Shown: positions 10,814 to 36,365 of the stretch, one piece after another | Numbering within the stretch: the first letter of the stretch is position 1 | Layout of the letters: every line of letters begins with the position of its first letter | Source: Octopus sinensis | Taxonomy: Eukaryota | Length of the DNA stretch: 64,000 nucleotides | Reading direction: 5' to 3' | Assembly (NCBI RefSeq): GCF_006345805.1 | Contig: NC_043003.1 | Span: 47,058,001-47,122,000 of the forward strand | Program-made: the position numbers and the translations under genes | Notes under the pieces: model-generated | Databases searched by the model: none | The model's input: the letters and a program-made list of their open reading frames with translations, nothing else | What the model was told of the DNA's origin: nothing

Positions 10814-11383
10814 TATATATATGAAAGAAGGTTTGAAAATGCAATTTTAAGGATGTTTATTCACTTGACCGGTTTCACTTTTTTAGAAAAAGATTGTGAA
10901 AAGTAAAATGTAAAGCTTTGTATAAGCTTTGTTGTGTTAAGTACTGGTTGTTACAAAAGTATTAAAATACATATATACATTCTTTGATAATAATAAGAAA
11001 ATGTTAAAACAAAGACAGAAAAAATGCCAAAAAGGCAGGTCAGTTCCTCTCCAATTTTTTGTAAATTCTTAAACATATCTCCTTCTGTGTGTATATATAC
11101 TATCAAACAAACATGATTTTTATTGAACTCATAATACTTTTTTGTTGAATACTTTCTTAAATACTTTCTTGTAAATTGTTTTTAACATTTTCTTATTGTT
11201 ATCAAATAAAGTATATATGTATTTTAATAATTTTGTGACAACCAGTACAACCAGTACTTAACACAACAAAGCTTATACAAAGCTTTACATTTTACTTTTC
11301 ACAATCTTTTTCTAAAAAAGCGAAATCAGTCAAGTGAATAAACATCTTTAAAATTGCATTTTCAAACCTTCTTTCATATATAT
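10814..11383. repeat. Foldback element, ~200-bp inverted arms, embedded in (TA)n
   Basis: 10814-11012 is the reverse complement of 11176-11383 with few mismatches. Confidence 0.9.
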
Positions 11384-11415
11384 TTCCACTCGTGCGGTAT
11401 CTTAGAACTTTACTT

Positions 11416-12780
11416 TTATATATATGCATATATATATATATATATATATATATATATATATATATATATATATATATATATATATATATATGTATATATA
11501 TATATATATATATATATATAATATATATATATATATATATACATATATATAACATATATACATATATATAATAATATATATATATATATATATATATATA
11601 TATATATATATATATATATGTATGTATACATATATGTATACATATATTTATATATACATATATTATATATATATATATATATATATATATATATATTAAT
11701 ATATATATATATATATATTAATAATATTTTAGACAGGTGTACTTCCTATCCATTGCTACAGATAATTTATCTATCTCGCGATAGCTATCAAGGTATCGGA
11801 CAATCTATAGTTCTTCTATTTCCTTTTTCATTTTGTTCTAGCGATCTACCTCAGATACAGCCTCTCACGATAGAACTCTGTCCAAAAAGCGATTGAAAAA
11901 ATTTGTTTCTCGTAGAAAATGGCAGGTAAGTACAGAAGTGTATTTCTTTTTTTTTCTTTAATGCTATCCCTTATAAGTTAGTTGCATTCAAAATAAGTTG
12001 TCCCCTACGAGAATCAAACATTCGGTTAAAATTAATTTCTTGGACATGTTTATGTGGTTGAAGTCTCATCTGTTTTACAACTACGTGGTCCTAGGTTCAA
12101 TTCTACTATGCGGCACCTTCGCTAAATGACTTTCTACCATGTGAATGTAATATTGTGCGTGCGTACGTGTGGTGTGATATATATATATATATATATATAA
12201 TATTATATATATATATAATATATATATATATTATATATATATATATATATATAAATATATATAATATATATATATACATATATATATATATATATATATA
12301 TATATATATATATATGTATATATGTGTATATATATATAATATATATATATATATATATATATATATATATATATATATATATTTTCATATATATTATATA
12401 TATGTACATATATATATATATATATGTATATAGTATATATATATATATATATAATATATTATATATATATATGTATATATATATATACATAGTGTAAAAA
12501 TACGGTAAGATAACAAATATAAAGAAAGATACTCATATTATGTTAAATTATATATATAAATATATACGTAATATATATTAACATACATATATATATATAA
12601 TATGATATAGAATATATACATACTACAAATATATATACTCGGTATAAATATATATATCTATACATATATATAATATATATAACTATCTATATACATATAT
12701 ACATACATAGATATTATATCTATATATTATATATTAATATATATTATATATAATATATAATATTATATATATATAATACT
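11416..12780. repeat. Large imperfect (TA)n microsatellite blocks with an intervening ~450-bp segment
   Basis: Seen directly. Confidence 0.95.
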
Positions 12781-13451
12781 CCCTATACCACACATACACT
12801 TGAGGTACCGCCGATATAGGAATCCCACCTTGTCTTATAGTAAAGGCATGAAATGAGGTATAATAATTTTTAGGGTTCTGGTGTCTGGCCTACGTGTACG
12901 CTTTGTAGTATTTAATACATTTTTTCATTTATATATATGTATGTATGTATGTATGTATGTATGTATGTATGTATGTATGTATAGAGAGAGAGAGTGTGGG
13001 GGAGAGAAAGACTGAGAGAGCTAGGATGTCTAGCCACTTTATGTTTTGAAGGCGAGAGACGAACAGACACTATGGCCTGATTGTGTCCAACACTCGATCT
13101 TGAACTCGAACTTTTACACTTTGTCCTTTTAACGATCCTCTCCTTTTGGGTGTCTTTTATACTTAATTAGCGAACAGGAAAGGATCTGGTTTTATGAAGG
13201 TCACTAGAATGCAGTAATAACGCTAACCTTGATCCGAGAAGCATTTACTTGGCAATTGGCATAATTCCATAATTGACACGAAAGACCTTAATAATCTTCA
13301 ACTCTTTTACGATAACGGAAATGTCAAAGATTACTACTTAGAGAGAATCATCATCACCATCATTATCGTCATTTAACGACCATTTTCCAGGCTGGTATGG
13401 GTTGGACAGTTTGACAGGAGCTGGTGAGCCAGTGGACTGCACCTGGCTTTA

Positions 13452-13675
13452 CTGGCTGAATCGTTAGCATGCCGGGCGAAATGCGTAGCCGTATTTCGTC
13501 CGTCTTTACGTCCTGAGTTCAAATTCCGCCAAGGTCGACTTTGCCTTTCATCCTTTCGGGGTCGATTAAATAAGTACCAGTTACGCACTGAGGTCGATAT
13601 AATCGACTTAATCCGTTTGTCTGTCCCTGTTTGTCTTCTCTGTGTTTAGCCCCTTGTGGGTAGTAAAGAAATAGA
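13452..13675 (+). mobile_element. SINE family C (MetaSINE-like central domain), long tail, inserted in an older RTE-tail-like repeat (~13350-13900)
   Basis: GAGTTCAAATTCC B box, then GACTTTGCCTTTCATCCTTTCGGGGTCGATTAAATAAGTACCAG. Confidence 0.85.
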
Positions 13676-14068
13676 TATCTACAGTTGAAGGCACTTCCTA
13701 ACGCCAACCACTTTACAGATCGTACAGGGTGCTTTTCTGCGTGGACACTAACACCAAAGAGGCCACCGGGTAACTTGCAAGAGAAGATCCTCCACACATA
13801 CGCCTCAACTAAAGGGGAATTGTATTGAGGGACGTGGCTTTGTGCCAAGTGATGAGAGGTCAGAGTATGACAGAGGGACAGAAACCGGGGTCCTGGTATA
13901 GTATTTCAAGGAGCTACAAAGAATACTTATTTTTACTGGAACGATAGGTGAATGATAATGATGCGTGACTGTCATTGATAATATAAAATAAATAATATTA
14001 ACTGAAAACGTGACAATATCTGAAAGGGTATAATCATTATGTCTTATGAATTGTTAATATATTTGCAG

Positions 14069-33352: not shown

Positions 33353-34520
33353 CACACACACACACACATACATATATATATATATATATATATATATATA
33401 TATATATATATATATATATATATATAATATATATATATATATATTATATATATATATATATATATATATATATAAATTGTTATATATAGTGCTCAGGTGA
33501 ACTACAACTAAGAAAAAATATAAGAAAAAATATTAGGTGTACCGTTAGCGGATTTCAGGAAGCATGGAAATTTTGAAATACGTACTGTGTCGACACTACA
33601 TTCATTAATTAATAATTGTGACTATAGTTAACCGAGAGGACATTCTGTCGTTATTCTTTTTTTGTAGGGTGGGTGTTGGGGGTGTATTTTGATTTGATTT
33701 CGTCTTGCTGGACATAGAGTATTCAGAGTGTATCTATTATTCAATGTGTCCGCCCTACTTTTTAAAACGATGAAATATGATTTGGATTGCTATTTATAAT
33801 ACGCTGAATGACAGCGAACAATTTTCCTCGCTGGCTCAACTATACATACGTTATTTAGCCCAGTTCAACTCTAAGTGAGCAAAAGTATGAACCAAAATAT
33901 CGTCTTCTTTGAGAGTATTTTAGATTACATTATCTAATGCTAATAAATTGAGATTAAATAATAAAAAAATTCTGCTGGAGTTACGTCCCCTGCACTTGCG
34001 TCAATTCTATTGAGGATCACCCGATTCATTCGTCTTCTTTTTCATCATTCATGTTTGATTCAAATCCTCAGGCCCTCGCTCCTGCAATAATGCCCGATCC
34101 TTCCTTCTTCTGTGGTAACATTATTCTACAGCAACCCCTTCTTTGCACTTATCTTTCCTACATCTATCGCTGTTTAAGCTGAACATCAACAACCTGTCTC
34201 ATCTGGAGACATGTGTAAGAGGATTTGCGAATGTTATAGGCGCTATCCCTTCTTCTAGACCTAACAAAGACTTACACACACACACACACAACACACACAC
34301 ACACACACACACACACACACACACACACATATATATATATATATATATTATATATATATATATATATATATTATATATATATATATAATATATATATATA
34401 TATATATATATATACACACACACACATATATATACACACACACACACATATATATATATATATAGATACATACATACATACATACATACATACATACATA
34501 CATGCATACATACATATATG

Positions 34521-34810
34521 ACGTGATCACGTGACCGACCAGACCATCAGATGTTGTTACACATCGCTGGTCACAATGCGTTCGCATTGTTTTGGCCTTC
34601 GAATGACGCCACCCCGCTGGCTAAGCGAGCAGGCCAACAGAAGAAAGAGTGGGAGAAAGAGTGGTGAAAGAGTACAGCAGGGATCACCACCCCCTGCCAG
34701 AGCCTCGTGGAGCTTTTAAGTGTTTTCGCTCAATAAACACACTCAACGCCCGGTCTGGGAATCGAAACCGCGATCCTGCTGCCCTAACCACTAGGCCATT
34801 GCGCCTCCAC
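34521..34810 (-). mobile_element. SINE family A, tail type b
   Basis: Near-identical to 33061-33352. Confidence 0.9.
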
Positions 34811-35004
34811 ACACATACACACACACACACACACAACACACACACATATATATATAGTTCTAGTCCTGTAGAAGCTCCTTCTATATAATAAATTAATTTT
34901 ACTCTGCTATGTATTGAGTACCTTATTTACTGTGGTTAACCCCGAATCAACCCGGGACCTACATATATATATATATATATATATAATGTCACACAATGAT
35001 AATA

Positions 35005-35548
35005 TGTATAGTGATGAATTGAACGCTGTTAAGTTTGTTCTTTGTAACGTTAGAGGATATAGCGTCAAAGGTAGCCTATAGAAAGAGGGGGGGTAAAGGA
35101 AAGAAAAAAACAGAAACCAAATAAGTTAGAAGTATAGAACGCTATGTAAATTAGATAAAACCCTAAACTCTTGGAAGAAGATATATCTAGTGGAAGTGAA
35201 ATGTAAGAAGAAAATAATGCTTAAATTATATATAATGGTAGATATCACTTATATGAACTAAAAGTGTGTGTCTGCCAAACCGTGTTTACAAGAGGAATTT
35301 TAGAAAACAAAGAATAAAAATTAGTTCACAATTAGCAGAGAAGACATAATTTCTTGCCATATATATATATCTTGTTCCAAGACTTTAGGATTTTATTTAA
35401 TTTACATATCGTTCTATACTTCTAACTTATTTGGTTTCTGATTTTTTCTTTCCTTTACCCCTCCTCTTTCTATAGGCTACCTTTGACGTTATATCCTCTA
35501 ACTTTTTTTTAAACAAAAACTTATTAGCGTTCAGTTCATCACTATACA
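35005..35548. repeat. Foldback element, ~148-bp inverted arms, in (TA)n context
   Basis: 35005-35152 is the reverse complement of 35398-35548. Confidence 0.9.
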
Positions 35549-35868
35549 TGTCCATCATTTTCTGTTAAGATGTTTTATTGACGAGTTTTATTTCTTCACT
35601 TCTCTAAAAAGAAGATTACATTTTTTTACACCATTTTATTCCTTTGGAATAATACCAATGATATCTTCGAAACATGTGTCGGAAGTAAAAGAATTTGAAT
35701 AACACCTGCATTTAACTCCATTTATTTATTTATATATATATATATATATATATATATATATATATATATATATATATATATATATATATATATATATATA
35801 TATATATATATATATATATATATATATAATGAGAAGAGGAAGATTTTGGAAAAATAATTTTATTATTT

Positions 35869-36365
35869 AGTCATCATCAGCGCTTTCGTTCGTTTTTCGA
35901 ACTTGTCAAATAAAATTATTTTGTCAATGTACAAAAAGGTTGTTTATTTATATAAAACGAATGTGTTTTTTTAGAAGAGGAGAACATTATTTTTGTTTTT
36001 ATTTGTTTTTTGTTTTGTTTTTTTTTGTAAGGTGGGTGACGTTTCAGGATAATGGAGAAAGATAGATAGATAAATAGATAGATAGATAGATAGATAGATA
36101 GATAGATAGATAGATAGATAGATAGATAGATAGATAGATAGATAGATAGATAGATAGATAGATAGATACCTCTCTATCTATCTATTTCCATTGTCCTGGA
36201 ACCTCACTCAGAAAAAAAGCAGAAGAAACAAAAACAATGTTCTCTTCTTCTAAACAAAACAAAGAAACATCTATTTTATATAAATAAACAACTTGTTTGT
36301 ATATTCACAAACAAATTTTATTTGACAAGTTCGAAAAACGAACGATAGCGCCAATAATAATGACT
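35869..36365. repeat. Foldback element, ~190-bp diverged arms, with (GATA)n in the loop
   Basis: CGCTTTCGTTCGTTTTTCGAACTTGTCAAATAAAATT versus AATTTTATTTGACAAGTTCGAAAAACGAACGATAGCG. Confidence 0.85.

Follow-up and report, generated by a model that had tools for sequence, protein, structure and literature searches.

Published insertions of Penelope-like elements (PLEs) are often inverted and carry a tail at one end (PMC8557442). PLE minimal hammerheads have a palindromic helix III, include a known U3-A8 covariant and occur as opposite-strand motif pairs 100–700 bp apart (PMC4209133, the main text of which leaves molluscs unmentioned), and the anole Poseidon element PAc, acting in vitro at AT-rich targets, cuts and extends both strands and starts reverse transcription at two sites, one at each limit of the tail (PMC11167929). 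Among self-folding repeats, massive editing is seen in lizard Penelope and frog Harbinger, and the octopus showed exceptionally high double-stranded RNA (dsRNA) potential (4.4e-3) and the strongest hyper-editing signal in the same 19-species survey, though it lay outside the survey's repeat analysis (PMC5625713). Here we describe long foldbacks, labelled H1–H4 and H6, in a 64,000-nucleotide window of the 2.72 Gb, microsatellite-rich genome of Octopus sinensis (contig NC_043003.1, 47,058,001–47,122,000). We conclude, with a probability of roughly 0.85, that they are independent 5'-truncated insertions of five PLE families, likely made as back-to-back copies from two fixed starts in a single event and likely edited from adenosine to inosine (A-to-I) when transcribed.

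PLE inversions, tails, hammerheads and the editing of lizard Penelope are each already published. The present analysis adds an end rule that spans several families, evidence, direct though limited, that an octopus PLE hairpin is edited, and an initial estimate of the share of dsRNA that such hairpins supply. We found no paper on octopus PLE hairpins in a search outside of which lay subscription journals, Repbase and supplements, which could contain the families.

Foldbacks in the window and their repeat families

Arms were defined by self-alignment and scored against 300 shuffles per locus. H1 (arms 10815–11012/11176–11383, identity 190/208 columns, loop 163 nt), H2 (18026–18165/18199–18338, 137/140, loop 33 nt), H3 (34995–35189/35362–35559, 176/199, loop 172 nt), H4 (35869–36070/36173–36365, 159/212, with an (AGAT)n array as its loop) and H6 (27029–27089/27361–27421, 52/63) each outscored all 300 shuffles. 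Arm identity in these five true foldbacks ranges from 75 to 98%, and the predicted fold of H1 reaches -278 kcal/mol (z -32). The first-pass annotation of this window had listed a sixth foldback at 11739–11932; we rejected it as chance pairing, given that 59/300 shuffles reach its score, that its single genome match is itself and that it contains a spliced exon (11842–11925). Two further foldbacks that were absent from that list, H7 (40228–40357) and H8 (47002–47179), pass the shuffle test.

The same annotation had placed the arms in or beside (TA)n and had seen no target-site duplication. H2 departs from both statements, lying inside AT-rich sequence of another repeat and being flanked by a 13–15-nt repeat that resembles a target duplication; duplications of ~11–15 nt recur at H2 insertions. 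The host of this nested copy is a minus-strand repeat (17888–17983 and 18349–18575), the 3' end of which resembles the H6 tail. The three GAAA motifs reported earlier are present at their positions. Read from the centre outward, every family shows two kinds of 3' end, the short end A and an end B lengthened by a tail of ~40–150 nt, and in these terms the foldbacks are organised as follows:

10822–11012, minus strand: H1 inverted arm, a 5'-truncated Neptune-like PLE 3' end that stops at short end A on a TA run
10860–10907, minus strand: H1 hammerhead remnant, helix III CCGG intact, core position 5 a C where 21/22 other copies have G
11013–11419, plus strand: H1 forward copy, with loop, right arm, hammerhead remnant (~11291–11338), end A at 11378 and a ~40-nt tail to end B, then (TA)n
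17984–18170, minus strand: H2 retrozyme arm, ending at tailed end B
18170–18334, plus strand: H2 retrozyme arm that stops at short end A; the place of the family hammerhead is immediately 5' of this truncated copy, and the 13–15-nt duplication-like repeat flanks the insertion
26945–27364, minus strand: H6 arm with tailed end B, broken by a fragment of a short interspersed element (SINE; ~27090–27150) and other sequence
27363–27407, plus strand: short arm of H6, whose end A falls on a TA run; the canonical CTGATGA core occurs in the family and not in this copy
35002–35358, minus strand: H3 inverted arm, starting in the decayed C-terminal end of a GIY-YIG-like frame and stopping at an internal AT-rich site
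35365–35735, plus strand: H3 forward arm with a decayed hammerhead (core 35604–35610, GAAA 35669–35672), end A lying on a (TA)53 array common to H3 and H4
35829–36150, minus strand: H4 inverted arm, ending at end A; hammerhead at ~35872–35915 with intact U3-A8 core and GAAA, G at position 17
36167–37007, plus strand: H4 forward arm (36167–36365), split by an abundant SINE-like repeat (~36366–36902), picking up again at 36903 and running to tailed end B
40228–40357, strand unassigned: H7, an old foldback with the look of the H2 superfamily by eye and weak BLAST support
47002–47245, strand unassigned: H8, an old foldback with 194 candidate loci, a hammerhead-like 3' half without C3 and no linked PLE frame

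In the genome searches, 40 candidates were scored per family and the top 12–25 loci per family, favouring window-like copies, were examined. Each of the five true foldbacks belongs to a repeat family of its own, with 1732 candidate loci for H1, 1825 for H2, 2766 for H3, 734 for H4 and 491 for H6 (the search with H8 gave 194, that with 11739–11932 only itself). The arms are multicopy; single-copy arms would, by the first-pass annotation's own criterion, have refuted its proposal. Most copies are a single arm. An inverted partner within 1.5 kb was found on the 5' side of 21/87 copies of H1–H4 and on the 3' side of 5/87, the gap between partners running from 5 to 1311 nt, and inversion points vary among copies.

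(TA)3 follows 64 of 99 free ends against a background of 7%, as counted for H1 (19/24), H3 (20/30), H6 (17/22) and H2 (8/23) with H4 left out. Hairpins pair one arm that stops at end A with one that stops at end B in 44 of 48 cases over seven families, or 42/46 once two duplicates are dropped, while solo arms stop at either end with about equal frequency. H1, H2, H4 and H6 in the window all obey this A-with-B rule. PAc shares the two start sites, and the available text on that element has no end-pairing tally of genomic hairpins to set beside these counts (PMC11167929).

Reading frames and hammerhead motifs

The first-pass annotation attributed the foldbacks to non-autonomous PLE-derived families. 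Their PLE origin is borne out by family hammerheads, by linkage of H1, H3 and H4 to reverse transcriptase (RT) and GIY-YIG endonuclease frames, by the two fixed 3' ends and by TA targets. 'Non-autonomous' does not fit H1, H3 and H4, all of which run into RT plus GIY-YIG frames and are therefore 5'-truncated pieces of autonomous families. In all three, the repeat end is preceded on its 5' side by one open reading frame (ORF), broken and collinear, with PLE-type RT and C-terminal GIY-YIG, and all three show the inverted 5'-truncated copy, the tail at one end and the (TA)n targets. A GIY-YIG-like frame lies 5' of H3 copies at 19 of 24 loci (one being the source of the query), together with RT pieces; RT and endonuclease pieces both match one 790-residue single-ORF protein with Hydra-clade motifs (E 4e-22 and 4e-9), and the loop of the window copy holds the decayed end of the GIY-YIG-like frame. 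Upstream of H1, one of four extended loci (L172) carries a broken RT followed by a Cys (zinc) linker and a CCHH GIY-YIG domain, and upstream of H4 three of four (L176, L177, L178) carry RT pieces, linker and endonuclease being readable in L177. The match of L172 to Pfam RVT_1 fell below cut-off, and the H3 pieces gave no match to it.

On motifs described in PMC8557442, and not on a tree, we call the H1 and H4 families Neptune-like and the H3 family Hydra-like. H1 and H4 resemble the endonuclease-bearing PLEs of Neptune/Nematis type in RT, Cys linker and C-terminal GIY-YIG with CCHH, as well as in the inverted 5'-truncated copy, one-end tail, (TA)n targets and near-3' hammerhead; they differ from them in non-coding 3' regions of 1–2 kb, U3-A8 cores and tails of ~40–45 nt, the clade being assigned by motif. 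H3 resembles Hydra-clade PLEs in its divergent RT, in an endonuclease that lacks CCHH and in which the conserved E and N have CxxC and CxH around them, and in its canonical hammerhead and (TA)n insertion. It differs in a tail of ~150 nt and a helix II ~45 nt longer; RWK and DKT were not seen in the recovered sequence, from which the N-terminus is missing (PMC8557442 for both comparisons). Another Neptune-like PLE family, with a 547-residue open RT frame and its own U3-A8 hammerhead, was encountered at L182:6105–7745 and downstream and at L032, L093 and L231, the last of which holds an inverted pair of its 3' ends 4.4 kb apart.

H2 is, on its sequence, a 358-nt retrozyme. Like metazoan non-LTR (non-long-terminal-repeat) retrozymes (PMC7229834; 10.64898/2026.07.22.740005), which are non-coding tandem units of 150–450 nt with GC under 45%, its unit is 44% GC, occurs in partial tandems, has no ATG-started ORF longer than 41 residues and carries a type I hammerhead, seen through covariation across subfamilies. 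Unlike these retrozymes, H2 is found mostly as dispersed partial units (the copies fetched are mostly 1–1.5 units long), with PLE-style inversions, a U3-G8 core and a site-specific long interspersed element (LINE) that it hosts. H2 and H6 are likely non-autonomous, or their partner was not found. An ORF that follows H2 in L003 was considered as a PLE frame and rejected, since it belongs to an L1/Tx1-type LINE; one side of L003 has no partner ORF.

The LINE hosted by H2 is a 5.56-kb, two-ORF element of L1/Tx1 type that enters one site in the unit, ~8 nt 5' of hammerhead helix I (L122–L171, for example L122, L139 and L160). This site accounts for 21/25 of its 5' ends and 22/30 of its 3' ends, the remainder being mostly tandems at the same motif. 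Insertions have a ~21-nt duplication and a fixed 3' junction; one copy lies right at the start of a U2 snRNA gene, on its first base, and the window holds none. In 20 more distant LINE relatives, Rfam called nothing in the 5' flanks. Other transposons and U2 are known targets of Tx1 elements (PMC4494074), and a literature search gave no paper naming both retrozymes and Tx1.

Hammerheads were called with our own descriptor and by covariation, not by Rfam, and are predicted self-cutting motifs. The descriptor finds a type I motif with palindromic helix III near the 3' end of H1, H3 and H4. The core is TTGACAA (U3-A8) in 21/22 H1 copies, CTGAAGA in 15/24 H3 copies and of U3-A8 form, read from the alignment, in 18/23 H4 copies. 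H6 has the canonical CTGATGA in 6/14 loci, and H2 has TTGAYGA (U3-G8) in 14/19 loci, whereas the remaining five do not have it in this position. Subfamilies of H2 covary at the 3-8 pair (all three core forms), in helix II and in the palindromic helix III (CTAG, CTGCAG, CTATAG). All five families carry a type I hammerhead motif with a C3-G8, U3-A8 or U3-G8 core.

The first-pass annotation had found no intact CTGANGA core in the window, where the copies are decayed (G5 is affected in H1, G5 and G8 in H3, and either position 17 or GAAA in H4) or, for H2 and H6, cut off before the motif; it overlooked the U3-A8 and U3-G8 cores, of which the former is intact in the H4 minus arm. A strict hammerhead scan found none at 51 inverted repeats sampled from the genome or at 11 in the window, being insensitive to decayed copies, and gave about four distinct matches in 400 kb against 1.0 in shuffled sequence. 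Palindromic helix III, the U3-A8 covariant and closely spaced opposite-strand motifs are shared with PLE hammerheads as described in PMC4209133; this genome adds U3-G8 and G3-C8 cores.

The G3-C8 form belongs to a young family (L262–L275 and L216:6515–6773; 844 candidates) whose hammerhead-shaped motif has a 7-bp helix I, a palindromic helix III and the swapped core in all 31 matches, a count in which overlapping loci recur. One narrow literature search found no natural G3-C8 core; PMC3884650 mentions the pair once.

Transcription and A>G changes at H1

Two features of the plus strand bear on whether H1 is transcribed:

10907–10993, plus strand: H1 A>G cluster, 16 differences in RNA-labelled contigs, inside the paired arm
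11842–11925, plus strand: spliced coding exon of 28 residues (the former weak foldback), with the next exon from 14069

The evidence comes from runs X1, X2 and X4, for which the RNA label is a guess (none is on record as RNA) and which consist of assembled contigs from animals not matched to the DNA; changes per contig were rebuilt by matching depth values, among the differences listed. Contigs of X1 and X4 cover exactly 11842–11925 and continue into the 14069 exon and into an upstream exon, and run X7 has no coverage of 11842–11925. Since spliced contigs span exactly this interval, the supposed weak foldback at 11739–11932 holds a plus-strand exon, with H1 460 nt upstream of its acceptor. H1 thus likely lies inside an intron of the host gene. 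The 28 residues resemble a calmodulin-binding (regulatory) segment of myosin light chain kinase; PDB and Pfam gave no match for the exon.

Three contigs cross the H1 inversion junction near 11012 (X1 record 5, X2 record 20, X4 record 27). In X4 record 27 all 11 differences are A>G (10) or T>C (one), with changes at 10 of 39 A's in the arm and 0 of 42 in the loop (p 3e-4). X2 record 20 has nine A>G and one T>C among 11 differences, with 9/36 A's changed in the arm and 0/24 in the loop (p 0.008). All assigned differences fall in the paired arm and none was seen in the loop. The A>G changes at H1 are clustered, confined to paired sequence and placed on the transcribed strand, that is, the sense strand of the host gene. 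Comparison with 23 genomic copies showed A in every copy at 12 of the 16 sites, and G at only two sites. The 5' neighbours of the changed A's match background composition. The DNA comparison is an unmatched DNA-like run, X18, which has no G at 10979, 10993 or 10907 (76% read) and low depth at most other sites.

We infer that ADAR caused these changes. The relevance to ADAR editing that the first-pass annotation had suggested gains direct support at H1, limited to contigs of one hairpin. Arm mismatches in the window show no clear G-U excess, and hence no sign of fossil editing.

Probable insertion mechanism and estimated contribution to octopus dsRNA

The contribution of such foldbacks was estimated from forty arbitrary 10-kb stretches (400 kb). 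Judged by eye, ten of the 51 inverted repeats in this sample show PLE architecture. This density, near one per 40 kb, extrapolates to roughly 30,000–125,000 genome-wide; the window exceeds the average, holding five in 64 kb. Half of the ten are family-backed, two of them by matching H3 or H6. Two families chosen by architecture alone both proved to have hammerheads, fixed ends and the A-with-B rule, and one had an RT piece. A version of the dsRNA measure of PMC5625713, with a different aligner and applied to this small sample, scored 209 of 15,908 sampling windows as positive: 118 simple repeats, 22 PLE-type foldbacks and 69 others. PLE foldbacks thus amount to roughly one quarter of the near-perfect pairing outside microsatellites and roughly one tenth of all of it, which ties them to part of the potential reported for the octopus. 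The proposal that they form a genome-wide source of long dsRNA stands in reduced form, as a minority of pairing potential and with only about a quarter of copies (21/87) being hairpins. PLE insertions likely supply a sizeable minority of the dsRNA available for editing.

Other repeats pair as well. Non-PLE near-perfect foldbacks, MITE-like (resembling miniature inverted-repeat transposable elements) or of unknown type (L215, L217, L218, L225, L240), exceed PLE foldbacks in sampled pairing potential. In the window, a very abundant SINE-like repeat with internal microsatellites occurs at 20523–21032, 36366–36902, 37925–38294, 57165–57724 and 58602–59122; neighbouring copies in opposite orientation form 75–90% inverted pairs, and one copy splits the H4 forward arm. 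Same-orientation copies of one SINE-like element (32985–33400 and 34443–34856) each lie between microsatellites and are 89% identical. A direct repeat of ~590 nt (60827–61414 and 62954–63509) is 89% identical over copies 2.1 kb apart.

Because hairpins so regularly join end A with end B, priming from two starts in one event is the simplest reading of how they arise. We infer two-strand priming by analogy with the lizard PLE studied in vitro. The enzyme of the element would nick both strands of an AT-rich target, each nicked strand would prime copying of the same RNA from a different fixed start site, and the two truncated copies would be joined, giving one short and one tailed arm. Such arms would fold into long dsRNA when a host gene is transcribed through them, with A-to-I editing a likely consequence. 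H2 and H6 may be mobilised in trans by a PLE enzyme. Most likely, the hairpins are insertion by-products without a selected function.

Long, near-perfect arms and TA flanks are also what MITE-like DNA transposons with long terminal inverted repeats would show, and some sampled foldbacks do look like fixed-length MITEs. H6 itself suggested one by its constant spacing, until solo arms and tails led us to reject that assignment. Single arms and variable gaps rule out fixed-length MITEs: most copies are one-armed, with a 5' partner in only 21/87, and loop lengths vary freely. With the two ends differing by a tail and the copies entering RT frames and carrying hammerheads, a MITE origin of H1–H4 and H6 is refuted and we give it almost no weight. 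Still less credible is that the inversions are assembly artefacts, the arms differing by 2–25% and ending at family-specific sites; for H1, contigs of three runs from two studies cross the junction, which disposes of the artefact that the first-pass annotation had raised as a possibility. More weight, though well short of an even chance, goes to inversion by LINE-style twin priming or template switching, or to a pair of independent insertions into a single TA array. An internal TA-rich tract able to anneal to nicked (TA)n directly follows end A in H1 and H3, the window H3 uses a third, internal AT-rich end, and the single TA array common to H3 and H4 shows that arrays accept several insertions. 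Separate insertions drawn from evenly split solo arms would, however, pair A with B about half the time and not in 42 of 46 hairpins; 5' inverted partners are four times commoner than 3' ones, and no TA array lies between arms at the junction.

It is likewise unlikely that the A>G contigs stem from another locus or allele, such as a retrotransposed edited copy, instead of live intron editing. The DNA is unmatched, one run is labelled as a different species and the DNA-like run has low-depth G at several sites. Against this source, the contigs cross the inversion junction of this very copy, the two long ones have five sites in common and differ elsewhere, X18 has zero G at three of the sites, and the loop is unchanged.

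Several observations weigh against our preferred reading, that of truncated, two-start PLE insertions that are edited when transcribed. The A-with-B rule is broken by 4/46 hairpins, and in the window H3 the partner of end A is an internal site instead of end B. H2 ends on TA in only 8/23 cases, and neither the 19 H2 loci and further LINE-bearing copies nor the 14 H6 loci yielded a linked PLE ORF. In the H1 family motif, helix II has U-U at its base, and Rfam recognised no hammerhead in the four family loci scanned. The A>G evidence comes from contigs with a guessed RNA label, at one hairpin and set against DNA of unmatched animals. Pattern searches of the genome, of the window and of 120 kb upstream failed to find the upstream exon, so the gene's identity goes no further than a resemblance. 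Microsatellites and other repeats supply most of the pairing potential.

Beyond the window, we tentatively extend the reading, at somewhat less than even odds: PLE insertion would build hairpins by two-strand priming from two fixed RNA sites, tens of thousands of them, contributed by many PLE and retrozyme families, would populate the genome and rank among the main non-microsatellite substrates of hyper-editing, they would explain part of the octopus dsRNA excess, and four natural forms of the hammerhead 3-8 pair, including G3-C8, would exist. The window names one source of octopus dsRNA, shows A>G changes in one likely intron and allows the share of that source to be estimated. The pairing of a short with a tailed arm gives a countable genomic footprint of PLE inverted insertion, a process listed as unresolved in PMC8557442, and young families such as H2, with copies 99% identical, are ready substrates for questions about both editing and insertion.

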